Virus record (IMG/VR): IMGVR_UViG_3300023184_004051
Coordinates: 44,671-108,670 of that record
Origin: a virus
DNA length: 64,000 nt
Reading direction: 5' to 3' (one strand)
A program made the translations under genes and the position numbers. The notes under the pieces were generated by a model. It searched no databases, had not been told where the DNA came from, and saw only the letters and a program-made list of their open reading frames with translations. This document shows, one piece after another, positions 19,601 to 58,898 of this stretch; positions within the stretch are counted from its first letter, which is position 1; each line of letters starts with the position of its first letter.

Positions 19601-19968
19601 ACTCGCCAGCGCAACTTGCCAACCTCGGCCAAAACGCAGGCTTCGCCATTTTGTCAACCGAAAGCGCATATTCCACCAACTACTCAGTGGGCAATGTGTT
19701 CCCTCTTGTCGTGGGTGGCGGGGATACGCAGGAAGTCGTGTTGGTTCAGCGTGGCACATCCAAAGTCCCTAACCCCATTGACGGTGGCACGAGCCTCAAC
19801 TCTCCGATGGTTTGGAACTTGGCTTCGGGGCAGTCTTTTCAGTATGACCACGATGCGGGCGACCCAGTTTGCCTTCCAAACTTCATTTACAAATCAGCAG
19901 GTACGATTAGTCACGCCGCCAATGCGCCAGTAGTCGGCCTACCAGATACGGGAACTGTTTATGGCTAA
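16624..19968 (+). CDS. Large minor tail protein
   Basis: 1114 aa after the tape measure; contains a TVTT...H....GQ.VTIAGV....YNG.WTV module. Confidence 0.65.
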   Translation: MSEMKTYYANPNYAEAGNSDNWVVVGAQSADVSVNDLTQLAVGNISAPTSASTTGYYFAQVEDLTRLTKGWSYLTKTNLGPRNQANDTFQGNRPQAPVSEPYVYVAEINGFLNGDTLAVLEGQQENQPPFSNAATSSDYGTSQWSVVRNAGLIPLVSTDPGNSTTSFLQPENSSSLASRLIAYNNIDYGDTNYGNTYTDDGGNTLPVPATKNYGSKFTPTPDNLGNGTTQNWYLVASGDDTAQANLLTMLPDFTTDGEQVVSVQVGQTATTVTLSAANSAFTVGQTLTIVTNSTGVSSSLPYLSTSAPMGWFAGKITSIAGATLYTDLNDTTSNTGTLDPLPGSLNNALTFTGTVLGTNTITISAVGSTSNYGIAAGHTLTLTNTISTISSTASTFTVTTSATHYIVAGQQVTIAGVTGATYTPYNGTWTVATVGATTFTVTSTINPGTVSPASATASQQAYVGSIIGNGVGAVITLDAYGGPMGLNTAITNGSGISFSANYLDNNVRAYAATITNYTLRVNDDGNKLDCQYSTAPYYAQNCKLSLSSALSTTGATTQVVLRNNDVYDYTIYGATNGGVVVAVISGDNYQEITVTSDTTILGFGTATATATSFTPNFAYPARITSLYDVTQTKSGDNDRYGKVLVLPVIPQIYRNAPIAQFKSMTALSGGITETISGSTYYYGTVGSTYFSSDPYTVSVDDVSNINVGDTLTFRNDYNPWFSNYTTKPPTSSEWSTYGDNVPWSWTLTDSGASGFTCTSGATFIILPDANGYSLPLVKGQAAFGAPTYVPNGAKVTGWNATQIFFDQNTTATVATPAQNIRFYPGTSGFNYWKVYSVNTADNTFVIYGSSGAYEQISASYGTNGDSQNYIFDYSNHLYAGNTVDISSTIGVGAGVVGLSSAVNVGPEVNLSWHTTNTVIASYAEGGRYIGSESLGDQEVAIPYRLGSLIGSTLAVDIIAQTSTAIVVNALPNTAASGIYNPSYTLTDYNQYGNSPAQLANLGQNAGFAILSTESAYSTNYSVGNVFPLVVGGGDTQEVVLVQRGTSKVPNPIDGGTSLNSPMVWNLASGQSFQYDHDAGDPVCLPNFIYKSAGTISHAANAPVVGLPDTGTVYG

Positions 19969-25900: not shown

Positions 25901-27088
25901 GTGTTGTTGAAGGCTTTGGAAGCACCATCGCTCGGTAGCAACGCAACTTCGTCTACTGAAATGCCAAAACTGACGCAACCCATCACGGTTGCCGATAACA
26001 ATGTCAACAACGCATTTCCAATCCCCTCAACCACGCCGATTGCCGGCCTCAACACCTTGTATGTGTTTGACCCTGTTGGTGATTATGGAACTTATGAACT
26101 GCACTCCGGCGGAACGATTGACACGCTTTGGACTAGCAGCGTCGGTGCGGTGGCGATTGGAACCACCCAAGTCACGTTGAACTCGGTTGAAGGTCTTGCT
26201 CCGGGCGTTGCGCTGATTTTCCAATATGGCGGCGACAATCAAGAAACTGTGTATGTGGACAGTTCGTGGGCGGGCGGTGCGATTGTGCCGATTGCCGCTC
26301 CGTATTTCACTAGGACTCATCCGAAGGGAAGCCGCGTTTACTCCTACACGGCTGGATTGGCAAGCGAAGTCATCACCACCCAAGCAACCAACACGCCGGT
26401 TGCCGTGTTCAACTACGGGCCAGATGGCTACATCGCCTCAGACAAGAACACCTACTACTACACGGTGCAAAAGTCGGAGGATGAAGGTCTGACTTGGACA
26501 ACTCTGCGTCACGGAGATGCGGTGAAATCCAACGACACCGGGGTGGCTTACATCACGGACTACGAGGCAGTTGCAGGAGTCACCACCTACTACAGGGCGA
26601 AGGCAACTCACTATGTTCCACCAGACCCCTCTAATCCTGATTACACGGTCACGGGGCCGCCAAGTGTGCAACTCGCTGCCAATGTCATCACCAATAGCAA
26701 CTGGTGGCTTACAAGCACGAGCAACACTTCCTTGCGCTTCCCTCTGCTAGTGAAAACCGGCTACTCAGAAACGCAGCGCCACCCATCCGGCGTGTTCTAC
26801 CCTCTTGGCTCGTCACGACCAATCACCACGGCTGGCGTTCCGACAGGTCGAGATGGCAGTATTACTGTGACTTGGATTGACGACAGCACCTTCCAAGACT
26901 TCCTTGACTTGCTGAATAAGGGCGAAACGCTAGTGTTGGTCAACCCAGTAGAGAGTGACCGCAAATACATTTTCATCAACCAAGACATCAGCATCACTCA
27001 CAATGCCGCCGCAAACCCTTGGCGTGAAATCAGCATCAACTATGTCGAGGCAGCGCCGCCCGGTTTTGGATACACCTATGGGAGTTAG
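19961..27088 (+). CDS. Very large minor tail / adhesin-like protein
   Basis: 2375 aa, Thr-rich beta modules; C-terminal DYEA..GV...YRA region resembles actinophage tail proteins. Confidence 0.7.
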   Translation: MANTSYTAAPSLVATNTTNKPTITTNTKLNITSPWLASGNAGQPDISTTLSATALEGASTLSIVSGENFPTSYPSVFQSGITYLPPSIGRLAGSVISGTNVIPFVADNELPTQAPTFVRLGSEILQVLSFGNVTVGATNYSCLNTATNTASAHPDFTPIHLNSLPTNTQYTSITVPHFYLADVSATGTMSGTSNTITTAALPATLGKGQTITTATGGTTYLPSGTTVVDYSTNSGLITLSNAFSTAAAGITFVNAANFTANMNPVMLSSIASVTSPAGGTHTIMSSLPNIGSVMTGTGMASPTYIAAIDTTNLRLQVSANPTSYGTTVALTSTLTFTCSTVSGSKILTIKNITVNGTSYPKVGSTNPTWNGRSLASYIKVGAPITTTTGGGIAAKYVTAINPSTGQVTISANATATVATATVTSAITMTANTGRSVNVVNNASSEINKIIAAGSSFSDTAGVTTYIAAGTTITKTLAVSSTQTELTMSAPSGTTGAWAGRVAQLSTTFTGTSSFSNQITGVVNASTLYQVGSAVYGNQYIPDNTTITGISGTTLTLSNALTNGFTTYTGQTFKVSSSLSIGKTYSSLPVTPLPCSIPVGTTLYLSFGNYVQNLTVTSLGSAGDTTLSVTAFQPRYNFSTTSYSYGVAVGLTGGYGYGASITTGLNADLYTGQVILLQANNSTDLTTPVTVKSYTRMTSRTIETMPFVSPYAYDGQSVGFSTTANFTGGSDQVTSVGSTGGLTIGQQVFSTCLPTTAQCFITAISGTTLTISTPATSGGTGATLSVYSNTFLASIPLTLDKGKVQEVVYPISLPTSNGSSWDISLASQTTYQHNNNASLVYYHWPTPIKTGDVTYRPDLGKLLMWDGFGWRTARVNSVSGVYSILGAVGGGEISDITLYDPTTNKETAADTYKGSPSTKYSTYHGGKRAVDPNGNEWTGATMSRIQFHLKVKVPQGKSVGFRSLALQSEYKAAPSVSSVHFTPGDNFEISPFYTGNSVFWYYSDLEKEPQTGWQVNIYDDYTYNRPDFDPDNAAIVPFWKASGADDTTDVEITGAHGWVNGERYWAFVRVAKQFHQKQWWGDWNSQRFIVSVDQPARPIMSIYTDSEKSVNKLAIQTTDNLLGFNNGTFVQGLGQWSRSVNDTVSSTVTDLNDGIPLGATLAAGNHITSLPVGATGFVIVQGALSGTGTGTFKVSASTAGGQDALGFPQSGRFWVTIGTEKILVENKNDGNKTGDTFTIITRGYKGTTAASHALNSAVYFGLQNDVYVGSVATIKFTQHNTVSWNTKSTATVRNYNGYGGSWENRTRTPLSILSQTQGAHKHSTDRVMVYDGAGLISHADVGSTVVLSFRHWHDANKKNVIGRDAQGNRTVKTVSVPDKVLTGGDVREVEMKIKAVQDIWDDTAHKAIKINIGATVNQIAGGPGDPTNHITIYPWLNKSQQFDFSTNQVCISRNYIPAGQKLTISSVGFRDPNAPHKNIPAASMSVYLTKDWHPTDKTLHIRAITKAPGCQVGNGQCFIIPKNSTISWQPPTIFTSRKVIHFDGSYRDKKGFEAQKLQPGDGLYVLKGRYFPGKANTATGTHQVTTVVPHTKRVDVDSTQAFVVDFLVQPTISTGGVLGTLTGSSFTIATGASTQYNAIAFSATPGSIAGAFASTPGLSPNSTVRAVTTVVGGTYAGYYAVTFNNSSLTQTTVKVQYTNVSGNAVSSPTYTGINATFSPSDILKISAGAQSLPVRPAIPNFAYQKYLPIKITYPPIYGDNVLAVDPTTGSGGSGDISEISLYPAGWSFTDQNPVRVNAGQTYGLSAYSKLVVGNGTPTFAPHIDWYDEVGSLLKSSYGTESLNNPGTINSVTIGVQMNTSASLWGQGWHPVAMVAKAPTVTLGTATFTSTSTSTGNFVIGAQAGFSAVNLKAGASLAGSNGTTYTLTTDVTATSSGFTLPVRFTAGITVPSSTVLTIKSTRAVPVLRWTNVNSTDAYGVSGVLLKALEAPSLGSNATSSTEMPKLTQPITVADNNVNNAFPIPSTTPIAGLNTLYVFDPVGDYGTYELHSGGTIDTLWTSSVGAVAIGTTQVTLNSVEGLAPGVALIFQYGGDNQETVYVDSSWAGGAIVPIAAPYFTRTHPKGSRVYSYTAGLASEVITTQATNTPVAVFNYGPDGYIASDKNTYYYTVQKSEDEGLTWTTLRHGDAVKSNDTGVAYITDYEAVAGVTTYYRAKATHYVPPDPSNPDYTVTGPPSVQLAANVITNSNWWLTSTSNTSLRFPLLVKTGYSETQRHPSGVFYPLGSSRPITTAGVPTGRDGSITVTWIDDSTFQDFLDLLNKGETLVLVNPVESDRKYIFINQDISITHNAAANPWREISINYVEAAPPGFGYTYGS

Positions 27089-30427: not shown

Positions 30428-30432
30428 GGTGA

Positions 30433-32384: not shown

Positions 32385-32405
32385 TCACCTCACCGCAGTC
32401 GAGTT

Positions 32406-32443
32406 GCTAGCCCTGTCATCTCTACGGAGGTGGCAGGGCTAGT
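32406..32443 (+). terminator. Stem-loop after the AAA gene
   Basis: gctagccctgtca...tggcagggctagt. Confidence 0.5.
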
Positions 32444-32516
32444 CGTCGTTGCAATGTTCCGCACGCTGGCGAGCCGGTTGGTGTAATGTCGGCGCTCTCT
32501 CTCGCAACGACAAGGA

Positions 32517-34472: not shown

Positions 34473-34496
34473 ACCGAAGGGTTCTCGGCACTTATC

Positions 34497-35000: not shown

Positions 35001-35102
35001 GTTTTCAGCACCTAACGGGTAGTCGCTCAACCCCAACTGTCGGGCTGAAAAAAAATCGTCACTTACAGTTGATTGCTCAGACAAACCAAGTGGGGGAAAT
35101 AA

Positions 35103-43849: not shown

Positions 43850-43899
43850 AACAAAAGTCTATCCTGCGTTAGTGAAATCCCTGAAGTAGAGTGGCATCT

Positions 43900-45102
43900 A
43901 TGAATATCAACGTGAGAGCCGAACTTGTTGCGATTGACAGCATCAAGGCGCACCCGCAAAACCCCCGACTTGGTGATGTCGCCGCTATTGCCGAGAGTTT
44001 GGAAGTCAACGGTCAGTATTCACCAGTCGTGGTTTGGAACGACACGATTATTGCCGGAACCCACACTTGGAAGGCCGCAAAGAGTCTCGGCTGGACAGAA
44101 ATCGCCGTCACCTACTTTGAGGGCAGCGAGGATGAGGCGCTTCGTGTGCTGATAACCGACAACCGCACGAGTGACATTGCCGTTTACAACAACGAACTGC
44201 TCCTTGACCTGCTGAAATCCCTGCCGGATTTGGAAGGAACGGGCTTTGACACCGAGTATTTAGACGAACTTGACGGTCTACACAACGACACCTCCGGTGG
44301 CATTTCCAAACCTCTCCTTGACGACGAGCCAACCGACGACCCAACACCACCTGTTCCAATCGTTCTTGGTGACTTTCGGGGCTACTTGGACTACGGACTG
44401 CACGACATCTGGCTCTCATCTATCCAAGATGCGGTTGGTGAAAAGAAAGCCAAGATTACTAAGGAAATCCGCAATCGCTTGGACATCCCCAACGACCCAA
44501 AGCCGCCAAAGACGGAAAAGGTCAAGACTTCCAAAACTGCCGACCAAAAGATGACGATGGTGGAAACTACTCTCGTTCCCATCAAAGAACTGAAGCGGTA
44601 TCCAAACAACCCTCGCGAGGGGGACATCGGGGCGATTAGTGAAAGCCTGCGGGTTCTTGGGCAATACCGACCCGTCGTGGTGAATAAGCGCAACAACCAA
44701 ATCCTGAAGGGCAACCACACGGCTGCCGCTGCATCAGCACTTGGCTGGACTGAAGTTGCCGTCGTATGGGTGGATGTGGATGACGAAGCGGCGGCAAAAA
44801 TCGTGCTTGCCGACAACCGAACAGCAGACAAGGCGACCTACGACAACGACCTGCTTCTCTCTGCGATTTCACTACTGGACACTTTGGAAGGTTCCGGGTT
44901 TGACAGTGAGGATGTAGCCGACATCGCACAGGGCAAGAACAGCACCCCCGTCATTGCAAAGGTCAAGTTCCAAATCGGGGATTACTCGTTCTCGACTACA
45001 CAGGGCGCTTACGACGCTTGGGCTGCTGAAACCAATATTCCTGATGAGGCGCTTCACCAACTTGGCTTGCCCCTAACCGCACTTCTAAGGGAAGCAGACT
45101 GA
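43900..45102 (+). CDS. Protein with two tandem ParB/Srx N-terminal domains
   Basis: Two copies of P.NPR.GD..AI.ESL...GQY.P.VV...G.HT..AA..LGW...DNRT.D; probable leaderless ATG at 43900. Confidence 0.85.
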   Translation: MNINVRAELVAIDSIKAHPQNPRLGDVAAIAESLEVNGQYSPVVVWNDTIIAGTHTWKAAKSLGWTEIAVTYFEGSEDEALRVLITDNRTSDIAVYNNELLLDLLKSLPDLEGTGFDTEYLDELDGLHNDTSGGISKPLLDDEPTDDPTPPVPIVLGDFRGYLDYGLHDIWLSSIQDAVGEKKAKITKEIRNRLDIPNDPKPPKTEKVKTSKTADQKMTMVETTLVPIKELKRYPNNPREGDIGAISESLRVLGQYRPVVVNKRNNQILKGNHTAAAASALGWTEVAVVWVDVDDEAAAKIVLADNRTADKATYDNDLLLSAISLLDTLEGSGFDSEDVADIAQGKNSTPVIAKVKFQIGDYSFSTTQGAYDAWAAETNIPDEALHQLGLPLTALLREAD

Positions 45103-45340: not shown

Positions 45341-46018
45341 GTGTCAGGCTTCACCACTGAGGCATTGCTCTACCCTCTTGCCAAAGGGGACATCAGAGGA
45401 CACGCCTTCCACGGGAACCAGTACGAAGTGGTCGCTAGCGAGGGCCAAAGCGAAAGCAGACCGCCGACTGGACAGTTCCAACTCTCAGGTAGTGAAATCC
45501 GTGAGTGGGTCAAGTCATTTCGTGAAGAACGCCACGTTGCGGGTATTCTCACACAAGAAGCCATCCTTGACTCAGGAGCCGTCGCTCTTTCCAAAATGCT
45601 CGGGTTTGACAAGCCGGCCCAGCAACCCAAAACGCCACCCAGCCGAGAACCAAACCTCTATCGGGGATGCAGTCCTGAAGGTGCTGAAAGCCTGTTGCGA
45701 CCTTTAGAACACTACGGGAGTGGCGGTGGGGCGGCTTATGGCAACGGGGTTTATTCCGCAGAGAACCGTTTGGTGGCGGAGCAATACAACGTCGGCGCAA
45801 TGGTGAAAATCTGGCTTGACCCCGATACAACGATTGCAGATGGCGAGGATGTGGAAAAGGCTTACAGGGCATTTGATGTCATCTTGCCTAACGAGTTTTC
45901 ATCGTTCGCTTATCAGCCCGTCAATGCAGCACTTCTCTTTGGCTACCAAGCCATTGAATGGGGTGGAACATTCGTCATTCTTGACCGTTCCAAAATGACT
46001 ATCAGCACCGAGTCGTGA
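45341..46018 (+). CDS. KGD-GHxFxGNQ tagged protein; ADP-ribosyltransferase-like C-terminus
   Basis: Tag LAKGDIRGHAFHGNQY; LYRG...G.GVY.A....A..Y. Confidence 0.6.
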   Translation: MSGFTTEALLYPLAKGDIRGHAFHGNQYEVVASEGQSESRPPTGQFQLSGSEIREWVKSFREERHVAGILTQEAILDSGAVALSKMLGFDKPAQQPKTPPSREPNLYRGCSPEGAESLLRPLEHYGSGGGAAYGNGVYSAENRLVAEQYNVGAMVKIWLDPDTTIADGEDVEKAYRAFDVILPNEFSSFAYQPVNAALLFGYQAIEWGGTFVILDRSKMTISTES

Positions 46019-46066
46019 CAGGCGGATTGGGCAAGTCGTAGTAGCATTAGCGGAAGGAGGTTCCCT

Positions 46067-46561
46067 ATGTCTATCAACCCTTTCCATTACGAAAATCTGC
46101 TGAAATCTGCTGGCAACTACCCCATTGCAAAGGGAGATTTGCCCGGACACCCGTTTCGGGGGAACCAGTACCAAACTCTCAACTCTGCGCTAGACCACAT
46201 TTCACAAACGGCTTATCGGAGCGGCGGGAGGATTGAGAGGGACTCGGTTGCCGATGCCCACCGTGCAGCGGCAAAGGAGCATTACAGCAGAGCAGCCGGA
46301 CTCCTTCAGCACGCCCAAAACCAAGTTGACGCTGGATTGTCAAACACGACTGAGCAATACAAGCAAGATGTTCACGATGCGATTGGCGCTCATCTGCTTG
46401 CTGGAAAAGCGCACGATGCCGCCGCTGATGAAAACTCACGAGGGGTGGCTTATGGCCCCGGAGAGGTAAAGCCGTACAACGCTGAACAATCTGCATCCGC
46501 CTCAAAGACGGCTTTACGCCGTTCGGGTGAAGCACGAGCCACTACAGAACTTCTTTCCTAA
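46067..46561 (+). CDS. Tagged protein; helical AH..AA-repeat C-terminus
   Basis: Tag IAKGDLPGHPFRGNQY. Confidence 0.65.
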   Translation: MSINPFHYENLLKSAGNYPIAKGDLPGHPFRGNQYQTLNSALDHISQTAYRSGGRIERDSVADAHRAAAKEHYSRAAGLLQHAQNQVDAGLSNTTEQYKQDVHDAIGAHLLAGKAHDAAADENSRGVAYGPGEVKPYNAEQSASASKTALRRSGEARATTELLS

Positions 46562-46573
46562 GTAAGTAGTGGA

Positions 46574-47170
46574 ATGTCTGCCAATCCTTTCCAAACCAGC
46601 GAGTTACTGAAATCGCTATCAAACTACCCCGTTTCCAAAGGTGGAGACTTACCCGGTCACGAGTTTCACGGAAACCAACACACAGGTGGCATTGGTGGTG
46701 GTGGTGGGGATGCCCGTCAGTCTGACCCCGGGCGCAACAGCAATCCGGGTCGGAACCAAGCCAGCACCCAAAGCAACGGACTTGGAAGCAAAATCCGTGC
46801 CAAACTCTCCCAAATCAACCATTTCGGTGCTACGAAAGAGGAATGGGATAAAAAACAGGCAGCCGCCGACAAGATAAGTAGGGCGCACCACGCGGCAGAG
46901 GCAGAGAAGGAACGTAGGATAAACAACGAGTTGGCTTACCACGACCGCCTCGTGCAGGTCGCTGACAAATACAAAGAAGAATGGCGACGGACTGGTGACA
47001 AAAGGGCGCTTGACAAACACGACGAACTGAAAGCGGAGTTCCACGCAGGTAAGCACTTGGCCTTCACCTTGAACACAGACAAAGAGCGCAAATACGGCAC
47101 GAACATAGACTTCTCGGTGGGTGAAGAAATCACACCAGACAAAATGCCCAAGTATGTCCCCTTCTCGTGA
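46574..47170 (+). CDS. Tagged protein; charged helical C-terminus
   Basis: Tag VSKGGDLPGHEFHGNQH. Confidence 0.65.
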   Translation: MSANPFQTSELLKSLSNYPVSKGGDLPGHEFHGNQHTGGIGGGGGDARQSDPGRNSNPGRNQASTQSNGLGSKIRAKLSQINHFGATKEEWDKKQAAADKISRAHHAAEAEKERRINNELAYHDRLVQVADKYKEEWRRTGDKRALDKHDELKAEFHAGKHLAFTLNTDKERKYGTNIDFSVGEEITPDKMPKYVPFS

Positions 47171-47385
47171 CTCAATGGTGGTCGTGGTGCTTAGACGGCC
47201 TCGGCTTGACTTGCACCTACCTAGTTGGTAGAAAGTTCTGGTGGGGTTGGCTCTGCTATCAGGGCTACAACCTCATTTGGATTACTTACGCCATCACCAC
47301 ACGGCAATGGGGCTTCATCCCCGGCTGCATCGTCTATGCCACCCTCAACCACAAGAATATGAGGTCTTGGCGCAAGGGCGCTTGA
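47167..47385 (+). CDS. Small PnuC-like membrane protein
   Basis: WSW......G.K.WWGW......W..Y......QWGF. Confidence 0.55.
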   Translation: MTQWWSWCLDGLGLTCTYLVGRKFWWGWLCYQGYNLIWITYAITTRQWGFIPGCIVYATLNHKNMRSWRKGA

Positions 47386-47419
47386 CAGATAACACTAAAC
47401 CCCGATAGTGTGAGGGGCA

Positions 47420-47827
47420 ATGACCTCCCCCTTCAATGAAGTGCCGAGCGAACCCGAATACCCTGACCCCTCGCTGATTGCCTCGATTGAGCATCAAGCC
47501 GAGAAGTTGGGCTACCTAGTGAAAAAGGTAGAGGACTTGTTCGCCAAGCGTGCGCGTGAAGCACGACACATTGCCCTGTTTCAGCACGGGTTAGAGAACA
47601 TCTACATCCTTCGCAAGTGGACTAATGGTGAAATCAACGACGAGGAAGCCGCCGAGTTGCAGGCTCAACTTGCCGAGCGCACCTCTGCGATGCACGATGA
47701 GGTCAAAGACCTTTTCACCACGAATATGAACCGCCTCAACGAAATAGTGCTTCGCCATCTTGATATCGGCAAGGGTTCAGCGAGCGAGTTGGACAACTTC
47801 CTCAACGAGATGTTCCGAGGCGAATAA
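47420..47827 (+). CDS. Hypothetical protein
   Basis: ORF after a TTGACA promoter. Confidence 0.55.
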   Translation: MTSPFNEVPSEPEYPDPSLIASIEHQAEKLGYLVKKVEDLFAKRAREARHIALFQHGLENIYILRKWTNGEINDEEAAELQAQLAERTSAMHDEVKDLFTTNMNRLNEIVLRHLDIGKGSASELDNFLNEMFRGE

Positions 47828-47969
47828 TGAGTCAGCAAGAGAACACGGACACTTGCCAACTCTGCGGCCATTTGCTTTATCACCACAATCCAAAATGCGG
47901 GTTCAATCCGTGGTGGGTCAACAGCAATGGCGAAAAAGTCAACCCGTGTCAATGTGAAGGAGAACAACA

Positions 47970-48266
47970 ATGAGCCTAGAGAACGACATCAGCCGCATCA
48001 GGGAACTTTTGGAAGTCGTCACGGAGGTTGTAGTGGAAAAAGCCGACAACAAGCCTGCTTGCCTGTGCCAGCCACCGGAGAACAACGAGGCAAACATTGA
48101 GTATCTGTCGCCATACAACGACGGTGCTGAAATGATTGAGGAACTTCGGGATTGGCTCGCCAGCCAAATCAACTTCGCCTACCAAGCCCAATCAGACACC
48201 CTCGCCTTCCAAACCACTTTGGATATGTTGAACGAAATCGTGAACAAACGGGCGCTGAGTCACTGA
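47970..48266 (+). CDS. Hypothetical protein
   Basis: ORF with aaggag RBS. Confidence 0.55.
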   Translation: MSLENDISRIRELLEVVTEVVVEKADNKPACLCQPPENNEANIEYLSPYNDGAEMIEELRDWLASQINFAYQAQSDTLAFQTTLDMLNEIVNKRALSH

Positions 48267-48354
48267 TTTCGGCAAAGAAAACACAACCCCCCTATTGCAT
48301 AGGAGCGTGGATTTGTGTATGCTTCACCTCTAGCCGACTGCAAAAGGAGAACCA

Positions 48355-48606
48355 ATGACCATTGCATCACCTTGGAACGACGAGAGCGACTACCACACCC
48401 CACAGTCGCAGTTTGGGGAGTTCATCGTCGTCACCCCCGCAGGTGAAGTGAGTTTCCTCCCCGAAGGAAGCATCATCTTGCCTGTTGCCGAGATGAGCGT
48501 TGCCGAAAAGAATGAAGCGGTCACGCTCATCAGTAAGCCAACCGAGGCTCGTCACACTTGGGCGCTGAAGGCTCGTACCGACGCTTGGGTGCGGAACGGT
48601 CACTGA
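48355..48606 (+). CDS. Hypothetical protein
   Basis: TTGCAT-17-TATGCT promoter, ccgact box, aaggag RBS. Confidence 0.55.
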   Translation: MTIASPWNDESDYHTPQSQFGEFIVVTPAGEVSFLPEGSIILPVAEMSVAEKNEAVTLISKPTEARHTWALKARTDAWVRNGH

Positions 48607-48612
48607 CCCCGA

Positions 48613-48870
48613 ATGGCAATCACCACTTGTATCTGTGGCGAGGAAATCGCAACCGTGTATGGCGATGGTGAAAACCTGTCCGTATGGTGGCATACCGCAT
48701 ACGCACGACCTGAGTGCCTGTCCTCCCAAATAGCAACACCAGCCGTTCCCGAAACATTGCCAACTGTTGAGTGTGAGTGTGGTGAAAAGTTTGTTGGCTC
48801 AACACGAAAGCACGACCTCGCAATGCACCGAGATGCCTGTAAATGGGGAGATGAATGGCTGACCTCGTAA
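48613..48870 (+). CDS. Small Cys-rich protein
   Basis: CICG...CECG...H...C. Confidence 0.5.
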   Translation: MAITTCICGEEIATVYGDGENLSVWWHTAYARPECLSSQIATPAVPETLPTVECECGEKFVGSTRKHDLAMHRDACKWGDEWLTS

Positions 48871-49070
48871 ATCACCCACCGCACTACACGAGCGACCCAT
48901 CAGGCGTGGAGTGCATCACCATCACCCAACATCGGAACTTCTGCGTCGGCAACGCCATCAAGTATCTGTGGCGAGCAGGACTCAAAGACGACACCAAAAC
49001 CATTGAGGACTTGCAAAAGGCCGTGTTCTACATCAACCAAGAAATCAAGCGGCTAGGAGGCAAACCGTGA
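48855..49070 (+). CDS. DUF3310-family protein
   Basis: D.VNHP.HY....ECI...GNA.KY.WRAG.K...EDL.KA.FY. Confidence 0.85.
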   Translation: MADLVNHPPHYTSDPSGVECITITQHRNFCVGNAIKYLWRAGLKDDTKTIEDLQKAVFYINQEIKRLGGKP

Positions 49071-50144
49071 ACAGAGAGTGGTGGAAAGTTAGACAAGAAG
49101 CCGAGGCAGCAGCCCAAACCAACCAGCCATCCGGCATTGACGGACTGAAGGAACACCTCCGCCACAAAGAAGCCGAACTCGCCTATCTCAAAAGGCAGAA
49201 GGCAATGGTCAAGTTTGAGGTCAAGGCGCTTCGCCGGTTGGTGGAAAACTATGACCAGCAATAGTATGCAGCGCAACAGTATGAACCAAGCCGAGCGTAG
49301 TGAAATGCGAGCCAAGCACATCTTGGAGACATACGAGGACAGAGTAACTAAGCAAGAAGTTGAAACCTGCGGTCATTGCTGCCTTGATGAGTGGCCCTGC
49401 GATGTAATCAAGGTGCTTGACGCTACTGAGCCACCGTGCGACCACGTTGAAGGTGGCGAAATCCCTCACACCACCGAAGGCATCAACGTTTGGCTCCACT
49501 TCACCTACTGCCCCTTGTGTGGAGAGAAACTATGAACCAGCAAGAACAAAATGAAGTTCGGGCGTTGTATTATTTTTGGGAAAACAGCCTGAACAACCGT
49601 ACACAGGAAGCGTCATCTGTAGACGCTTGGGAAGCCGTAGCGAACACTAACCCCGATAATGTTAGCCAAGGCGACCTAGTGAAAAAGGCGCGGCGTTTGC
49701 TCGCAGAGGTCACGCCAGAGGAATACGGCCTTGCTTACGCACAGGGATACCAAGTGGCAATCCAAGACCTTTTAGGCGATGTCGTTTTGGAGGAAGCCAC
49801 TCCTACAGGTGCAACTTTCTCCAAAGGCGAACACCAACCCCCTGCAAAATACCCAACTAGGGGGGAGAAGTAATGGATACGCCTTCAATGATTTTCACCA
49901 TCTGCATTATCTGGCTTCTTGTTATTGCGGCGATGCGATGACAACGGCACAAAATCGAGCCGAGGAACTCCTTTTGGAACTCATCTATGAGCGAGTGCTG
50001 GTTAGTGCGCCAACCAAGATTGAAGAACTGGATTACCCGGCTAGTGACCATTACAAGGGCTACTACGAAGGTTGGTGGGAAGCGGTAGAGGCGCTACGGA
50101 ACACCATTGACAACCATAACGAGGGCAACGGGTATCGCAAATGA
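49067..50144 (+). CDS. Run of four small coupled hypothetical ORFs (49067-49264, ~49251-49535, 49532-49873, 49938-50144)
   Basis: Overlapping start/stop codons and SD-like sequences; one ends YCPLCGEKL. Confidence 0.45.
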
Positions 50145-50614
50145 GCCGCCAACAGGACATCGCCAACGCACAGAACCCTGAAGGTGAAAAGCGCCTTGCC
50201 CGCATCCTGAACCGCCACATCGGTTGGTCGGAGCAGGGTTGGTCATCCATCTCTTGTGAAAAGTTGCCACCCTCCTACTACCTTGACTTCTGCATCGTGC
50301 GTGACAACCGCTATGTCGAGGCGTGGTTAGAGGTGAAAGAGCGTGGAGCGTTCTACGGCGACTGGCTTTTCCCGCTTGCAAAGTGGATACGAGGTTTGGA
50401 ACTTGCTGAAATGAGTGACAAACCGTTCTACATTTGCTTCTCTTACCCTGACAAGATTTCAGCAGACGAGCGCATCTGCTATTTGGAAGTCAACAAAGAG
50501 ATGAAGCCACCTGTGGTTTGGGCGGGGCGCAAAGACCGAGGCTACGAGAACGATATGTTCCCTCACATTGAGTTGCCCCACAAGTGGTTCACAGATATCT
50601 CAGACTTGGGATAG
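50141..50614 (+). CDS. PD-(D/E)XK nuclease-like protein
   Basis: Y.LDF........LEVK.R pattern. Confidence 0.55.
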   Translation: MSRQQDIANAQNPEGEKRLARILNRHIGWSEQGWSSISCEKLPPSYYLDFCIVRDNRYVEAWLEVKERGAFYGDWLFPLAKWIRGLELAEMSDKPFYICFSYPDKISADERICYLEVNKEMKPPVVWAGRKDRGYENDMFPHIELPHKWFTDISDLG

Positions 50615-50639
50615 GGTTTCACCACTGAACTAAAGGAGA

Positions 50640-51621
50640 GTGAGGCAACCAATGTTCACCATTTTCTGCCAATCACACGGCAAAGAGGAAGTCTGTCCAA
50701 GCGAGCCTTACAAGGTCTGCCCTGAGTGCTTCCACATCTTTCATACCCCTGAGGCGCTGCTAGCCGACGCAAACATCGAACGCTTGCAGATAACCCCGAG
50801 TAGTGAAAATGTCACGCTCATCACGGACACGGAAGCCGTGTTGTCCTGTCCGCATTGCGTTCACGACTTCTAAGGAGGGCTTGATGTCTGCTGAAATGTC
50901 TTACGAGGACTTGGCGCTTAGGTTTTTGTATTTAGCCAACAACAGCGGCGTGAACTACGGGCAAGGAAATCGCTATCTAGCCGAGGCTCAGGTCTGGGCG
51001 ACCCTTCACCTCGCAAAAGCGATGGGCAACATAGCAGAAACTCACCAAACTGATGAGTTTGCGCTATGTCAGCACCGCACCCTCAATACCCATAAGATTG
51101 AGAACGATGTTGCCGACGGGTTTTGGACTGAACTCAACACTTACTGCCCGCAATGTGGTGAAAAGTTATGACAAGCCGCTTGATGAGAAACTTCTACTTC
51201 TTTGCGAAGCGCCAAGCCGCACGAGTAGCCTGCCTGTTCGGTCACCACAATCACAAGATGGGCGTTCCGGCTAAGGGTGGCGGCGGTTTCGGATGCCTGT
51301 GGTGTAAAAAGCCCCCAAAAAAGTAGTTCCGCCCCACAAACAGGGCAAAACTATGCTGAAAACGGTATTGTTCTGGCAAAAGAGCGCCGGAACCGATACT
51401 CTTTTGACCCACGAGGGGGAATGATGCCGAGTATTCCAATCAGCAAGACAAGCAAGAAATGGCGCAGAGAAGGATGGCTGTCGCTCTCGCTGCGTGACTT
51501 CGGTTTTGGATTTCACCTCTACTTTTGGCGACGAAAGAACGCGTGGGGAACATCCGGCTTCTCCGTCAACTGCTACTTGCTTTTTGTGGATTTTCACCTA
51601 GAGGTTTGGAAAACTAAATGA
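50640..51621 (+). CDS. Small hypothetical ORFs (50640-50873, 50884-51171, ~51277-51621)
   Basis: ORF track; CxxC motifs in the first two. Confidence 0.45.
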
Positions 51622-52070
51622 CGGTTCAATCCAACTTCAGCGAAGGTGGACAGTTAGAGATAGTCCAACACCCACATCCAATCCTCGCCACTGTTGCCAC
51701 TCCCGTCACGGATTTCAGCACTATCCCCGCTCTTGTCTTGACAATGCGCCAAGCAATGAAGGAACACCGTGGCGTTGGGATTGCGGCAAACCAAATCGGT
51801 GACCCAAGAGCCGTGTGCATCGTCAAGGGAACCGTGATGGTCAACCCAACGGTAGTGAAAACCAGCGGCAGGGCGTTGTTGGCGTTAGAAGGCTGCCTCT
51901 CTGTCAAGGCGAGCGGCGAAGCCTATCCCCGCACGGCTCACGACTTCATCACCGTGGCGTTCCAAAACTCCAAAGGTGAAAAGGTTGTCCAAACCTTTAG
52001 CGATTGGGATGCTCGCATTGTCCAACACGAACTCCGTCACCTCAACGGGAAAACGATTGCCGATGCCTGA
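51618..52070 (+). CDS. def: Peptide deformylase
   Basis: Three signature motifs: GVGIAANQIG, EGCLS, QHELRHLNG. Confidence 0.9.
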   Translation: MTVQSNFSEGGQLEIVQHPHPILATVATPVTDFSTIPALVLTMRQAMKEHRGVGIAANQIGDPRAVCIVKGTVMVNPTVVKTSGRALLALEGCLSVKASGEAYPRTAHDFITVAFQNSKGEKVVQTFSDWDARIVQHELRHLNGKTIADA

Positions 52071-52197
52071 AGCACCACCGCCCAACAACCCTTTGGCGAC
52101 TTTTAGTGAGTGTCCTCATTGTGGTGAAATCCTCACGCCAGAACACGCCCACTTCAAGTGCCGAGGATGCGGTTGGCGTGATAGTTGCTGCGACTAG
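52063..52197 (+). CDS. Tiny Zn-ribbon protein
   Basis: CPHCG....PEHAH.KC..CG..DSCC. Confidence 0.55.
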   Translation: MPEAPPPNNPLATFSECPHCGEILTPEHAHFKCRGCGWRDSCCD

Positions 52198-52236
52198 AGA
52201 ACAGAAAAGTGACACCCCTGCTGTAATCTAGGGTCT

Positions 52237-52884
52237 ATGGCGACTAACCCTTTCTCTCTTGAAAACCTTGCACCAACTTGGGTGCAGGCTACTGAAATCC
52301 TCAAAGGTGACTTCGTTGGTCACCCCTTCCGTGGCAATCAGTGGGAACCCGGCAATAACCTCGGACTAAGCGAGATGACTTACACCGGAAGCGAAAAATG
52401 GAAAACAGTTGACCCGGCGCAAACTTACCAAGTTGGTTTTGGTCGAGATGACATTGGTACAACCCTCACCAGTAAAGGCGATGTTGGCATTTCCATTTAC
52501 GTTTATGACGATTGGCACGACGATATGGGTCAGTTGAATGTCCTAAAGAGCAGCGAACTGAAGTGGGTTTTGGATGGCATCAGTGGCGGAGAAGCCACTT
52601 GCCGCTCTTGCGAAACGACTTCCCCCCTCAAAGATTTCACTACCCCCGAAGTCATTGCTCCTACCGAAAAAGTTGTTCCGGCAAGCCTCGTCAAGGGCGG
52701 TTGCCCACATTGCGCGCAGGAAACGAGCATCGCAACCGTCGGTCAACTCCTTACGGCCTACACCAAAAACCCAACCAGCAAAGAGATAGACGACCTCACG
52801 GATGCTGTTCACGAGTCAATGACTGGAAACTACGGCGGCTACGACACAATGGATGAATACCGCAGCAGTAGCGGAGACTACTAA
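52237..52884 (+). CDS. Tagged protein; C-terminus with two CxxC pairs
   Basis: Tag ILKGDFVGHPFRGNQW; CRSC...CPHC. Confidence 0.65.
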   Translation: MATNPFSLENLAPTWVQATEILKGDFVGHPFRGNQWEPGNNLGLSEMTYTGSEKWKTVDPAQTYQVGFGRDDIGTTLTSKGDVGISIYVYDDWHDDMGQLNVLKSSELKWVLDGISGGEATCRSCETTSPLKDFTTPEVIAPTEKVVPASLVKGGCPHCAQETSIATVGQLLTAYTKNPTSKEIDDLTDAVHESMTGNYGGYDTMDEYRSSSGDY

Positions 52885-52889
52885 GTCCA

Positions 52890-53249
52890 ATGTCCGGTTT
52901 CACCACCAACGAACTTCTCTACCCCCTAACCAAAGGCGACCTACCCGGTCATCCCTTTCACGGAAATCAGTATGAGGCTGGCGCAGGTGAACTGACCCCT
53001 GATGACAGGGTAGACATTGAGGAACTGATTAGCGAACATCAAGGGAGCATCGGTTCGGCGCGTAGTGAAATCTCTGGGTCAAACCAATATCGGGACTCTG
53101 TTGGCGCAGGTGAATACCGGGCGCAACAACTTGAAAACGACATCGCTAACCACGAATACGCCATTGACGCGTTCAAGGTGGCGCTGCACTCTGGCAAAAA
53201 AGAAGATTTGGAATGGGCAAAAGCCCTTTCCGCTAGTGCATACAAGTAG
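52890..53249 (+). CDS. Tagged protein; short helical C-terminus
   Basis: Tag LTKGDLPGHPFHGNQY. Confidence 0.65.
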   Translation: MSGFTTNELLYPLTKGDLPGHPFHGNQYEAGAGELTPDDRVDIEELISEHQGSIGSARSEISGSNQYRDSVGAGEYRAQQLENDIANHEYAIDAFKVALHSGKKEDLEWAKALSASAYK

Positions 53250-53255
53250 GCAACC

Positions 53256-53960
53256 GTGAGTGATTTCACCACGACCTCCCTACTCAAAGGTCTTTCTCGC
53301 TACCCCCTAACAAAGGGGGATTTACCGGGGCATCCGTTCCACGGGAACCAGTGGACAACAGTTGGTGGAATAACCCCCGATGTTGCCAACTTCCTTACGA
53401 AAAACGCTAACAAGTTTTACAGGGCTGGTGGAAAGGTTGAGGTTGTCAAGTTCTACCAACGCAACCTTGCCAATGGTCGCAGCCGTGGAGATGAAAGACA
53501 GCGCCTCTCAAAGGTGCTGGACAAACTCTACGACGAGCAGCGCAAGGAATACGAAACCTCAGGGGATAGTGAAAAATACAAGGAGATTGAGCGCCTGATT
53601 TCGGGCTACTCCTTCACCAAACTTGCCTTGATGGGTTTTGGAAGCGCCATCGTCGCCACCGATAAAGACGGCAATGTGGTCGGGGCAATGAGTTACACCA
53701 CAAATGACGAAAGAATGAAAGTCGGCATCCTCGGCTCATCTAATGAACCTGATGGCGTGGCTACAGCCATTGAGGTGAAAGCGGCATCATTGGCAAACGA
53801 AAACTCCCTAAGGGTTGATAGCGAAGCCACTACAGACGCAGAGCCATATCACCGCCTCATCGGGAGAACCATTAGCGACCCACAAACCCTTGGGAGCAGT
53901 TGGTCAGCAGAGGAAGTCAAAGCAATCGCAGGCTTACCCGTCGGGCCGGAACACATCTAA
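53256..53960 (+). CDS. Tagged protein; GNAT-like C-terminus
   Basis: Tag LTKGDLPGHPFHGNQW; VATDKDGNVVG...LGS...GVAT...A..YH..IG. Confidence 0.6.
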   Translation: MSDFTTTSLLKGLSRYPLTKGDLPGHPFHGNQWTTVGGITPDVANFLTKNANKFYRAGGKVEVVKFYQRNLANGRSRGDERQRLSKVLDKLYDEQRKEYETSGDSEKYKEIERLISGYSFTKLALMGFGSAIVATDKDGNVVGAMSYTTNDERMKVGILGSSNEPDGVATAIEVKAASLANENSLRVDSEATTDAEPYHRLIGRTISDPQTLGSSWSAEEVKAIAGLPVGPEHI

Positions 53961-54664
53961 TGACACGCTTGGATTTCACTACTGAAGGCTTGCTCTATCC
54001 CTTGACCAAGGGGGATAGCCCCGGACATCCCTTCAGGGGGAACCAATGGCAAACCGTTGGGGGCATCACGCCAGAGGTAGCGGAGTTCATCACCACCAAT
54101 GCAAACAAGTTCTACAAAGCGGGCGGCAAAATCGTCAAAATCAAATCGGGGGCAACAAAACTCCGCAACGGCAAAGACCTTACAGAGGCCCGCCAAGAAA
54201 TGACCGCCAAGATTGAGCAACTGTCCACTAGACAGATGACCCCCGAAACAGAACGCCTCATAGAGGGCTACAAGATGATGCGCCGCAACCTCTCTATGCT
54301 GGACAGGGAAAAAGGCCGTGAAGCCTATGTCGCCTTAGACAAAGACGGAAACATCGCTGGTGTAATCGGCGCAATCCAACAACGCGCAGGGAAAGATTGG
54401 AAAATCACGGAGTTAGGCTCCACTAACGAAATCCCCGGAACCGCAACCGCTTTGGAACACTACATCGCTTCATCGGCAGGGAACACCAACTTAGAAAGTA
54501 TCTCTACAGCAGATGCCGTCAACTACCACACGGCTATTGGTAGAACCCTTGAACCCATCATCCACCCTTATGACAAAACCCCTACAGGAGACTTCACCTC
54601 AAACTGGTCACTCTCCGAGATGCAAGCGATTGCCAAACTCCCCATAGGCCCGAAACACATCTAA
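53960..54664 (+). CDS. Tagged protein; GNAT-like C-terminus, paralogue of 53256
   Basis: Tag LTKGDSPGHPFRGNQW; shares TVGGITP.VA.F...NANKFY.AGGK and the LP.GP.HI end with 53256. Confidence 0.6.
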   Translation: MTRLDFTTEGLLYPLTKGDSPGHPFRGNQWQTVGGITPEVAEFITTNANKFYKAGGKIVKIKSGATKLRNGKDLTEARQEMTAKIEQLSTRQMTPETERLIEGYKMMRRNLSMLDREKGREAYVALDKDGNIAGVIGAIQQRAGKDWKITELGSTNEIPGTATALEHYIASSAGNTNLESISTADAVNYHTAIGRTLEPIIHPYDKTPTGDFTSNWSLSEMQAIAKLPIGPKHI

Positions 54665-54703: not shown

Positions 54704-55318
54704 ATGTCCGACACTTCCAATACTCCCGAGTTCACCTTGCCGCCCCTTCCCGAAAAGGGTAAGAGGACAGGCAGAAAGACCCTTCTCACCCCAGAGGTCA
54801 CCGATGCCGTTGTAAGGCTTCTCAAAGCCGGAAACTACCTCAGTCAAACAGCACGGTATCTCGGCCTAGACCCAACCACTCTGAACAGTTGGAGGGCAAG
54901 AGGGAACGAACTGATGGCAAGTGGGAGGGAGGATTTGGATGAATACGAACAAATGTTCGTAGACTTCTCCATTGCCGTAGAGAGTGCAAAGGCTGAGGCT
55001 GAAATCAGGGCAGTAGACATCATCCGCAAGGCTATGCCGAAAGATTGGCGAGCAGCAACTTGGTATTTGGAAAGAACCAACAACCGAGATTGGGGAGCAA
55101 CCCAACGGACAGAGGTATCAGGCCCAGATGGAGGGGCTATCCCGATAGATGTGGACAGTGTGTATCGGAAGTTGGAAGCGGTCACCCAAAGGGTCGTTTT
55201 GGAAGCCGAGATTGCATCTCAGCCGACAGAGAGTGCGGAACTACCAGAGAGTGCCGGAGATGGTGAAATAGAGGCCAATGAGCCGGTTGTAGAGAGTGAA
55301 CCGAATAAGGCGTTATGA
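54704..55318 (+). CDS. terS: Terminase small subunit
   Basis: GRKT.LT, HTH, DWRAA.WYLER...WG...E.SGPDGG.I; lies upstream of terL. Confidence 0.75.
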   Translation: MSDTSNTPEFTLPPLPEKGKRTGRKTLLTPEVTDAVVRLLKAGNYLSQTARYLGLDPTTLNSWRARGNELMASGREDLDEYEQMFVDFSIAVESAKAEAEIRAVDIIRKAMPKDWRAATWYLERTNNRDWGATQRTEVSGPDGGAIPIDVDSVYRKLEAVTQRVVLEAEIASQPTESAELPESAGDGEIEANEPVVESEPNKAL

Positions 55319-57310: not shown

Positions 57311-58276
57311 ATGAACCAAATCATCCAGCGGCTTTTGGAAGCCGGCCCCGAACAGAAGCGGCAAATCTTGTCGAGTCTGTCAAAAGACGAGTTAGCAGTC
57401 GTCTACCGTGAGTTGGAAGTCATCGAAAGCAGCCCAACACGGCGTTGGTATTGCCCCCGTGAGGTCTGCAACGGCGAGCCACACGCAGGATTTCACTGGT
57501 GCGACCACCCGATTGACGGGAACCACACGCCATACTGCAAGCACGCTCGAACACCACAGCGCCCGCCGGAGGAAACGGCAGACAAGCCGTGGCTTACTTG
57601 GTTCTTTAGCGGCGGTCGAGGAACGGGAAAGACACGAGCCGGAGCCGAGTGGGTTTTGGATTTGGTATGGAACCAAGGCTACAAGCGCATCGCACTTGTC
57701 GGTCGAACACCAGCCGATGTCCGAGATGTGATGATTTACGGGGATAGTGGAATAATGTCCGTGAGCGACCCCCATCCCCGCCCCACACACGAGCCGACCA
57801 AGCGCAGGCTCATCTGGCCGAATGGGGCGCAAGCCTTCACCTATTCCGCCGCCGCTCCGAGTCAGTTGCGTGGCCCTCAGCACGATGCGGCGTGGTGCGA
57901 TGAGTTGGCCGCTTGGACTGACGCTCCAAAGGGCGATGTTTTGGACACCTCTTGGAACAACCTGATGCTCGGCTTGCGTCTGGGGACAAATCCAAAGGCG
58001 CTCGTCACCACCACTCCAAAACGAGTCAAGTTGGTTCGACAAGTTATGGAGCGTCGAACAACCGTGATTACACAAGGAACGACCTACGAGAACCTTTCCA
58101 ATATGGCCGCTTCCTTCCGTGAGAACGTGCTTGCGGCCTACGAAGGCACACGCATTGGCGAACAGGAGTTGATGGGAACCCTCCTGACAGATGTTGACGG
58201 TGCAATGTGGACTTTGGAAATGCTCGAAAATCGAGCCGAACTTGTCGCAAGCGTGCGAGCGGGGCTAGATGATTAG
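57311..58276 (+). CDS. terL: Terminase large subunit, ATPase half
   Basis: GGRGTGKT, LRGPQ...AWCDE, TTTPK, QEL.G. Confidence 0.85.
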   Translation: MNQIIQRLLEAGPEQKRQILSSLSKDELAVVYRELEVIESSPTRRWYCPREVCNGEPHAGFHWCDHPIDGNHTPYCKHARTPQRPPEETADKPWLTWFFSGGRGTGKTRAGAEWVLDLVWNQGYKRIALVGRTPADVRDVMIYGDSGIMSVSDPHPRPTHEPTKRRLIWPNGAQAFTYSAAAPSQLRGPQHDAAWCDELAAWTDAPKGDVLDTSWNNLMLGLRLGTNPKALVTTTPKRVKLVRQVMERRTTVITQGTTYENLSNMAASFRENVLAAYEGTRIGEQELMGTLLTDVDGAMWTLEMLENRAELVASVRAGLDD

Positions 58277-58898
58277 AGTCACGCCAGACGATTTCACTCG
58301 CATCGTCATAGGGGTTGACCCATCCGTGACTTCAGGCGAGAGCGCAGACGAAACGGGCATCGTTGTAGTTGCAGCCGGCCCACACCAGCCCGATACTTGC
58401 GTGATTGAGACTTGCGACAGCCACGGCTATGTGCTACAGGATGCGACGCTCGCCAAGACCAACAAGAACAGCGTTGACGCTTGGGTGCAACGGGTCATCG
58501 AGGTCTTTGACGATTGGAACGCCAACCTTGTTGTGGTGGAAAGTAATCAGGGCCACGAACTTTTGGAAATGGCGCTGCGGACAAAGCGGCCTGACCTACC
58601 CATCAGCAGACCGAACGCCAAGGAGAACAAGAAGGCACGAGCCGAACCCATTGTGGCGCTCTACGAGCAGGGTCGAGTTCACCACGTTGGCGACGCTGCG
58701 CAGTTCGCTCAGTTGGAGGAACAGATGACGACTTGGGTTCCATCACCAGACGGCAAGCGGCGAGGCAAGTCACCTGACCGCGTTGACGCTCTTGTATGGG
58801 CGCTCGCGGAACTGAACTTGCAGGGCAAGAAATACCGCAAGCAGTTGGAAGCGTTTGCTCCGGTCAACTTCGAGCAACGCAATATGTGGCGTATCTAA
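58269..58898 (+). CDS. terL: Terminase large subunit, nuclease half (separate ORF, +1 frame)
   Basis: RIVIGVDP......DETGI, E.NQG, K..RAEP...LYEQGRVHH, SPDR.DALVWA. Confidence 0.85.
   Translation: MIRVTPDDFTRIVIGVDPSVTSGESADETGIVVVAAGPHQPDTCVIETCDSHGYVLQDATLAKTNKNSVDAWVQRVIEVFDDWNANLVVVESNQGHELLEMALRTKRPDLPISRPNAKENKKARAEPIVALYEQGRVHHVGDAAQFAQLEEQMTTWVPSPDGKRRGKSPDRVDALVWALAELNLQGKKYRKQLEAFAPVNFEQRNMWRI

Follow-up and report, generated by a model that had tools for sequence, protein, structure and literature searches.

The final 64 kb of a 108,670-bp contig of an uncultured virus (IMG/VR record IMGVR_UViG_3300023184_004051, positions 44,671 to 108,670; this whole stretch of 64,000 nucleotides is referred to as the window) contain seven open reading frames (ORFs) on the plus strand, grouped in two clusters, whose products begin with a common peptide tag in front of different cargo segments (cargos 1 to 7; Table 1). 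In each of them, a short leader of 14 to 22 residues is followed by the tag K-G-D-x-P-G-H-P-F-[RH]-G-N-Q-[YWH]; together with the hydrophobic position in front of it (φ), the tag reads in full φ-x-K-G-D-x-P-G-H-P-F-[RH]-G-N-Q-[YWH]. Alignment of the seven sequences revealed eleven invariant columns (F4, L9, K15, G16, D17, G20, H21, F23, G25, N26, and Q27). The degenerate DNA pattern for G-H-x-F-x-G-N-Q has 7 matches in the window versus 0.01 expected (0 of 100 shuffles), and a six-frame scan of the window gave no eighth copy. Synonymous codons vary among the seven copies, which argues for selection on the peptide rather than for a DNA repeat. Behind the tag, similarity was detected only between cargos 6 and 7 (phmmer E 1e-35), and neither the tag nor most cargos had a match in Pfam, PHROGs, or NCBIfam. 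An earlier reading of the window, made from the letters alone (the sequence-only reading), had described the seven tagged ORFs in two clusters, the end of similarity after the tag outside the last pair, and the position of the second cluster next to the gene of the small terminase subunit (terS), and all of this was confirmed. For cargo 7, a longer frame with a TTG start at position 53900 was considered and rejected in favor of the ATG start listed in Table 1.

The count of seven tags given in that reading is correct for the window and incomplete for the genome. Scanning of the whole contig yielded 22 tags in 15 proteins, and the 15 tags outside the window all lie upstream of it. They are distributed over eight consecutive ORFs (genome positions 20382 to 35465) directly following a Mu-type portal gene (Pfam Portal_Mu, E 3e-32; phrog_113), and the genes of the capsid protein, the major tail protein, and the tape measure are located further downstream, which places the block of tagged ORFs between the portal and the capsid gene. 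The first tagged ORF after the portal (genome positions 20382 to 22463) encodes a 693-residue protein whose C-terminal part (about residues 550 to 693) corresponds to a head serine protease of the XkdF type (Peptidase_S78_2, E 1.4e-14). Its catalytic-type His and Ser residues are invariant, and a conserved I-x-K is found directly before the protease domain. In the large proteins of this head region the tags are internal, with one to four copies per protein and Gly-rich linkers on either side; the window genes carry, at the N-terminus, one form of this repeated internal header. A MuF domain was not detected in this genome. In a longer version of the tag, found at L002:2935-3042, L002:5988-6095, and L002:10829-10966 (genome positions 21435-21542, 24488-24595, and 29329-29436), G-D before P-G-H is replaced by G-G-P-G-S-G-x-x. 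These positions fall in the protease fusion and in a further two proteins of the head region, and database hits (P0235 and P0025, for example) have the longer version as well.

A profile built from the 22 copies of this genome was searched against 1.84 billion representative proteins and matched 1886 clusters at E ≤ 1e-3 and 435 at E ≤ 1e-10. The best 150 hits contain 579 tags, two or more per protein and up to 9, and yield the consensus [VIL]-x-K-G-D-x-x-G-H-x-F-[HR]-G-N-Q-[WY]-T, in which G, H, F, G, N, and Q are present at 95 to 100%. Within these 150 hits, the median spacing between tags is 213 residues, 73 proteins have their first tag among residues 1 to 45, and the last tag is almost never terminal, its median distance to the C-terminal end being 258 residues. 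The spacing and the distance of the last tag from the C-terminal end indicate that the repeated unit consists of a header plus the domain downstream of it. The motif is present in at least 120 stretches of IMG/VR, many of them with multiple copies. A scan of 185,579 species genomes gave 92 pattern matches, 24 of which were real tags on contigs of diverse bacterial phyla, including contigs of Ideonella livida and Hydromonas duriensis; the remaining 68 were judged from stops and wrong context to be chance matches, about 50 of which were expected from the information content of the pattern. Among 50,697 records of cultured phages, tblastn with the 36-residue tag and with a four-tag protein of 645 residues found no tag, a search whose poor sensitivity for a 14-residue motif does not allow absence to be established. 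A search of PDB sequences with the tag profile gave no match, and in the literature the motif gave chance matches only, with no paper or curated family found that describes it. Overall, the tag is apparently a widespread and hitherto undescribed header.

The profile search had been proposed in the sequence-only reading, with diverse enzymes and hits in MuF, portal, or scaffold proteins as the supportive outcome, and it returned diverse enzymes as well as fusions to MuF, portal, and head protease domains. Specifically, Pfam domains on tag-bearing proteins include ADPrib_exo_Tox, ART-PolyVal, PARP, GNAT, MuF, topoisomerase IB, ParB nucleases, zeta toxin, pentapeptide repeats, inorganic pyrophosphatase (InPase), PI3/4-kinase, NUDIX, 2H phosphoesterase, and SprT-like and ferritin-like domains. 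In one hit (P0233), Portal_Mu at residues 91 to 468 is followed by tags at residues 570 and 696; the C-termini of portal proteins project into the capsid interior. In another (P0235), XkdF at residues 9 to 130 precedes tagged modules, and in three further proteins (P0232, P0188, and P0025) MuF is found at or near the C-terminus, behind the tags. As judged from these domain architectures, the portal, protease, and MuF fusions connect the tag with the phage head. Nearly all long tag-bearing records hold a Mu-type portal or MuF. A 574-residue protein (P0243) has a ferritin-like domain (residues 72 to 209) N-terminal to two tags (residues 306 and 427); ferritin-like proteins are the classic cargo of encapsulins.

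AlphaFold2 models of two of the window proteins were used to assess the nature of the cargos. The model of the cargo 6 protein (12 homologues) has a predicted local distance difference test (pLDDT) value of 83, with values below 50 for the leader, 57 to 65 for the tag, and about 90 for the cargo. Foldseek comparison with the PDB gave GNATs exclusively as top matches (GCN5, NatD, and the AtaT and TacT toxins; E from 5.5e-5, probability 1.0), so that the predicted GNAT fold of cargo 6 and of its paralogue cargo 7 is supported; neither cargo has a sequence match in Pfam or NCBIfam. At the site of the acetyl-CoA motif R/Q-x-x-G-x-G/A, G167 is invariant and A169 is near-invariant, and the leading R/Q is absent. 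The model of the cargo 1 protein (8 homologues) has a pLDDT of 68, with residues 1 to 38 below 50. In an exhaustive structural comparison with VIA-align, the top 40 matches are almost all ADP-ribosyltransferase (ART) folds (Z 7.4 to 4, approximately 100 to 116 residues aligned), among them exotoxin A-like proteins, cholix, diphtheria toxin, RES, ParT, AcrIF11, and PARPs, and weak Foldseek matches also point toward ART. With Z values below 8 and a model pLDDT of 68, these comparisons moderately support an ART-like fold. Among the homologues of cargo 1, Y-R-G (R108) as well as Q203, D215, and R216 are invariant, and no conserved catalytic Glu of an R-S-E or H-Y-E triad could be placed. The same model also matches a region of the pre-ejectosome protein of cyanophage A4 (PDB 9k3a chain B; Foldseek E 1.1e-3, VIA-align Z 6.1), a known head-carried ejection protein, which may contain an ART-like domain.

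For cargo 4, an atlas search gave sub-threshold zinc-ribbon leads only. The beginning of cargo 3 resembles module 1 of a 1248-residue polyprotein of the head region (phmmer E 2e-6, residues 348 to 757), and cargo 2 had no homologue among the 150 top profile hits and 120 IMG/VR loci. In both models the leader and the tag lie outside the confidently folded region (pLDDT 35 to 65, versus about 90 for the cargo). The sequence-only reading had named the cargos ART-like, GNAT-like (two), and zinc binding, and had stated that a tag forming part of a shared folded domain would speak against it. The two GNAT assignments hold at the level of the predicted fold and the tag does not appear to belong to a shared fold, whereas the ART assignment extends to the fold and not to the catalytic Glu, and zinc binding has the CxxC...CxxC pattern as its sole basis, the atlas leads being sub-threshold.

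Several window cargos recur as modules of larger proteins. Cargo 6 is paralogous to module 2 (residues 775 to 987) of the 1248-residue head-region protein (E 1e-16), and its homologues are found directly behind tags in two database polyproteins (P0042 and P0001); similarly, a homologue of cargo 1 follows a tag in a third (P0004). A separate gene of this genome encoding 455 residues is fused to the homologue of the 1248-residue protein in P0090 and L113. In a relative whose capsid protein is 80% identical (G022), the place before terS is occupied by a tagged polyprotein of at least 1021 residues, with tags at residues 295, 694, and 905 and a GNAT module behind the second tag, and by a tagged ORF of 171 residues. 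This recurrence indicates gene fission and fusion at the headers, and stand-alone and fused forms appear to be equivalent. Two or more unrelated effector-type domains per polypeptide are present in the 635-, 645-, and 1248-residue proteins of this genome and in most database hits; the window ORFs have one tag and one cargo segment each. A 370-residue homologue of the cargo 6 protein (P0161) has an extra N-terminal domain and a decayed tag, in which G-H-x-F-x-G-N-Q is replaced, with the cargo conserved, and represents a natural case of tag loss.

The residue immediately before G-D is consistent within a protein and varies between proteins, being K, L, F, E, H, A, N, D, or M. Of 133 proteins, 81 have K in all tags and 37 have no K at all, compared to 26.6 and 3.6 expected, respectively. 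Covariation with the head protease was analyzed in 24 long IMG/VR records with strict tags (26 were searched, two of which had no tags), comprising 16 records of the K class and 8 non-K records. XkdF (Peptidase_S78_2) was found in 10 of the 16 K-class records and in none of the non-K records, whereas Mu-like_Pro (gpI family) and DUF2213 were each found in no K-class record and in 2 of the 8 non-K records, all of the L class (G005 and G008 for Mu-like_Pro; G009 and G019 for DUF2213, there inside a tag-bearing ORF). Peptidase_S78 of the HK97 type was essentially absent from the tag-bearing records, with a single sub-threshold match in a K-class record (G001). This distribution is suggestive of a pre-G-D residue that tracks the head-protease family.

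Four ORFs start exactly at M-G-D, three in one IMG/VR record (L119; 3300037851_000393) and one in another (L067), and two of them have a clear ribosome-binding site of the GGAGGG type and a stop codon just upstream. Among 84 tags located at most 60 residues from an upstream stop, the next-shortest leader for which only one start codon is possible places 9 residues ahead of the G. Removal of Met from the M-G-D proteins would generate the same N-terminus as a cut before G-D. In the lineage of L119 and L067 the tagged proteins are leaderless and each is a separate ORF of about 140 to 225 residues; no head protease family was found in the L119 record, which is 43% complete. Assemblin-like head proteases follow a φ-x-P1 site rule, and T4 gp21 cuts at L/I-x-E. 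Given the pattern of the pre-G-D residue, the protease covariation, the M-G-D starts, the agreement of the tag flank with the φ-x-P1 rule, and the I-x-K before the protease domain, a cut at the bond just before G-D, which would be φ-x-K in this phage, is plausible. The proposal of the sequence-only reading that hydrophobic-x-K is a cleavage site fits the lineage-specific residue, the covariation, and the M-G-D starts. Cofolding of the XkdF protease domain (A5, residues 57 to 194) with the tag (A2) gave a score of 0.01, which is evidence in neither direction.

Our explanation builds on the observed motif, its modular placement and spread, the domain repertoire, the fusions, and the protease covariation. 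We suggest that phages possess a large class of head-associated cargo modules, which elsewhere appear as the beads of giant polyvalent polyproteins and of which the seven ORFs are stand-alone representatives. The header would have two parts. The first is the short flank on the N-terminal side, which varies with the phage lineage and here is φ-x-K; we read it as the site at which the phage-encoded head maturation protease cuts, in this genome presumably the XkdF-type domain of the 693-residue protein. The second is the near-universal core G-D-x-x-G-H-x-F-[HR]-G-N-Q-[WY], which after the cut would form the new N-terminus of each cargo and would hold or direct it within the head, with the Mu/SPP1-type portal-MuF module as the most likely place, and the ART-like, GNAT-like, and other enzymes would then travel with the DNA. 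The core does not vary between lineages that differ in their protease family, which makes it an unlikely recognition element for the protease itself and suggests a second function shared by all carriers, and the presence of a Mu-type portal or MuF in nearly all long tagged records makes the portal-MuF module the first candidate partner. A lineage-variable protease site joined to a universal core that becomes the N-terminus of head-carried cargo is an explanation for which we see slightly better than even prospects. Its parts differ in strength: a head-internal location is well supported for the tagged class, whereas for the seven window proteins this location, and likewise the cut, its exact bond, and the delivery into the host, are inferred. 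Compared with the sequence-only reading, which was partly supported, the modular tag before unrelated cargos stands, whereas its N-terminal position is a special case, most tags being internal to polyproteins.

It is unlikely that the tag serves only as a processing site or spacer of polyproteins for the head protease, with no addressing role, and that the small ORFs merely keep it as a leftover of gene fission. Such a function would agree with the location of tags between domain-sized segments in Gly-rich linkers, with fission and fusion at tags, and with the fusion of the protease into tag-bearing proteins. A leftover should decay, yet the N-terminal tags of single-domain ORFs are fully conserved in orthologues of 40 to 57% identity; moreover, the ORFs starting with M-G-D keep the core with nothing to remove, and invariance of the core across protease families would be unexpected for a pure protease site. 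Quite improbable, in our view, is an uncleaved docking peptide similar to those of encapsulins, which would bind the inner capsid wall, the scaffold, or the portal with no proteolysis involved. This possibility leaves both the lineage-specific pre-G-D residue with its protease link and the exact M-G-D starts unexplained, and peptides of this kind usually drift with their partner, whereas the core is near-invariant across phyla; in its favor are the conserved linear motif, short and in a disordered context, on unrelated enzymes of phages with HK97-type shells, and the ferritin-like domain in one tag-bearing protein. An action of the tag after delivery or independent of the head, such as binding of a host component, self-processing, or a modification (e.g., Asn-dependent chemistry), with an incidental head-gene neighborhood, is very unlikely, because the portal, MuF, and protease fusions and the site between the portal and capsid genes tie the tag to head assembly and no known self-processing motif matches (no PDB, Pfam, or NCBIfam match), even though G, H, F, G, N, and Q are invariant over many phyla, like a chemical or catalytic motif, and the window clusters lie among non-structural genes.

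Some observations weigh against the proposed combination of a cut site and a loading core. Tag positions +3 (H/R), -3, and -8 are likewise consistent within proteins, and concerted evolution could explain part of the consistency of the pre-G-D residue. A unique behavior of this residue is thereby ruled out, and the argument for a cut site rests on the protease covariation and not on consistency alone. The covariation, in turn, spans approximately 5 versus 6 independent lineages, is confounded by shared ancestry, and comes from records many of which are incomplete. DUF2213 counts here as a candidate protease family; an hhalign comparison of its region with the XkdF profile revealed no relationship. 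On the linear contig, 45 to 79 kb separate the window genes from the portal-protease block, a distance that would shrink to about 30 to 40 kb only if the genome were circularly permuted, which is hypothetical, and the neighbors of the window genes are ParB, nuclease, deformylase, and terS genes. The presumed timing of expression and presence in the head of the seven window proteins thus have paralogy and the shared tag as their only basis. Finally, a strictly invariant core of 8 residues is unusual for a docking peptide and could instead reflect an intrinsic chemistry. In a broader form of the proposal, the core would be a universal loading signal that needs a free N-terminus, exposed by the head protease or by Met removal, and that serves the portal-MuF heads of phages from many phyla, such that any protein with the header of about 14 residues would be carried and delivered with the DNA; this generalization is tentative, and we rather doubt that it holds in full.

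The header shows similarities to several known systems. Encapsulin cargo-loading peptides direct unrelated enzymes into a shell of the HK97 fold. The likeness lies in a short peptide on unrelated enzymes; the encapsulin peptide, however, is usually C-terminal, remains uncleaved, and binds the shell protein. The internal proteins of T4 (IPI-III and Alt) carry a capsid targeting sequence that is cut by the prohead protease gp21, and the cargo is located inside the head and delivered with the DNA. Common features are the short N-terminal signal, the unrelated cargo, the φ-x-P1 rule, and an ADP-ribosyltransferase among the cargo, with head location and cut being presumed in our case. The signal of T4 is lost from the cargo and shows only weak conservation among T4-like phages, whereas here the conserved core is located C-terminal to the predicted cut and would be retained by the cargo; unlike the T4 signal, to which it has no sequence similarity, the core is near-invariant across many phyla and recurs inside polyproteins. 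The proteases differ as well, being of the XkdF, Mu-I, or DUF2213 type here, with K or L at P1, where T4 has E. The T4 internal-protein system has been reviewed (PMC9026906, PMC9958956). In the giant phages phiKZ and SPN3US, many ejection or inner-body proteins are cleaved by the prohead protease (gp175 and gp245, respectively) at a short consensus before DNA packaging (PMC10052503, PMC7411985). This consensus, (S/A/G)-x-E, comprises three residues; neither a conserved core flanking it nor repeated units of header plus domain are known there.

Polyvalent proteins of phages and conjugative elements, with predicted delivery along with the DNA, have been described by Iyer, Burroughs, Anand, de Souza, and Aravind (2017; PMC5512222). 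They share with the tagged proteins the domain repertoire (ART-PolyVal, MuF, ParB nucleases, InPase, and peptidases, with ART-like and GNAT cargos in the window) and the late or head gene neighborhood (the portal-capsid block and, in the window, the second cluster next to terS), as well as the predicted delivery. Autoprocessing by zincin-type metallopeptidases was proposed in that study, the text of which does not contain this motif, linkers, or a GNQ string; in contrast to these polyvalent proteins, the modules described here have their boundaries marked by a defined header and can also stand alone as single-domain ORFs, such as the seven of the window. The MuF polymorphic toxins of temperate phages (Jamet et al., 2017; PMC5576092) combine an N-terminal MuF with one C-terminal toxin, and the text does not mention a linker motif. 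Fusion of MuF to variable domains is common to both, whereas in the tagged proteins examined MuF is found at or near the C-terminus, behind the tags.

If the explanation is correct, metagenomes could be screened by a sequence rule for effectors carried in the head, many of which lack a known family, giant polyvalent proteins could be divided into functional units at the headers, and a portable, testable tag would be available to bring foreign proteins into phage capsids. Three poorly studied families of head proteases would also gain a predicted cleavage specificity from the link between the pre-header residue and the protease. Enzymes that travel in phage heads and enter the cell together with the DNA are an established means of disarming the host, and we know of no account of how proteins are chosen for head loading outside T4 and a few giant phages.

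Table 1. Tagged cargo genes and other features of the window (positions refer to the window)
Feature	Position	Strand	Remarks
Tagged cargo 1	45341..46018	+	225 aa, GTG start; leader and tag at about residues 1-28; predicted ART-like fold at about residues 94-225
Tagged cargo 2	46067..46561	+	164 aa; orphan cargo
Tagged cargo 3	46574..47170	+	198 aa; Gly-rich linker after tag
Tagged cargo 4	52237..52884	+	215 aa; CxxC...CxxC pattern, possible zinc ribbon
Tagged cargo 5	52890..53249	+	119 aa; orphan cargo
Tagged cargo 6	53256..53960	+	234 aa; predicted GNAT-fold cargo
Tagged cargo 7	53960..54664	+	234 aa; predicted GNAT-fold paralogue of cargo 6; start overlaps cargo 6 stop
terS, small terminase subunit	54704..55318	+	phrog_4102, E 3e-27; second cluster directly upstream
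ParB-like protein	43891..45102	+	two ParB_N stretches (Pfam ParB_N, E 2e-10); first cluster downstream
DUF3310 protein	48855..49070	+	E 7e-13
Phage PDDEXK_14 nuclease	50141..50614	+	E 1.3e-15
Peptide deformylase	51618..52070	+	Pfam Pep_deformylase, E 1.4e-29
Small CxxC ORF	51976..52197
Large terminase, ATPase part	57311..58276	+	Terminase_6N, E 2.4e-23
ORF overlapping large terminase	58269..58898	+	209 aa
Large ORF	4961..8014		1017 aa; no PHROG match
Large ORF	16624..19968		1114 aa; no PHROG match
Tail region ORF	19961..27088	+	2375 aa; no PHROG match

The order of the ParB and terS genes flanking the tagged clusters is the same in the Arthrobacter phages Kovu and Edmundo, which by their portal (about 50% identity) are the nearest cultured relatives; no tag was found in the first 28 kb of either. 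The acetyltransferase encoded beside terS in Kovu was considered as a relative of the GNAT cargo and the Kovu protease as a relative of the 693-residue protein, and both candidates were rejected because no relation was detectable. Between the two clusters, the window encodes the DUF3310 protein, the PDDEXK_14 nuclease, and several small Cys-rich ORFs. The peptide deformylase gene is located just upstream of the second cluster, separated from it only by the small CxxC ORF; a link of this enzyme to N-terminal processing of the tagged proteins would be pure speculation. Downstream of terS, about 2 kb without long ORFs precede the large terminase gene, which is apparently split into the Terminase_6N ATPase part and the overlapping ORF of 209 residues, and the tail region includes an ORF of 2375 residues that, like the neighboring ORF of 1114 residues and the ORF of 1017 residues, lacks a PHROG match (Table 1).

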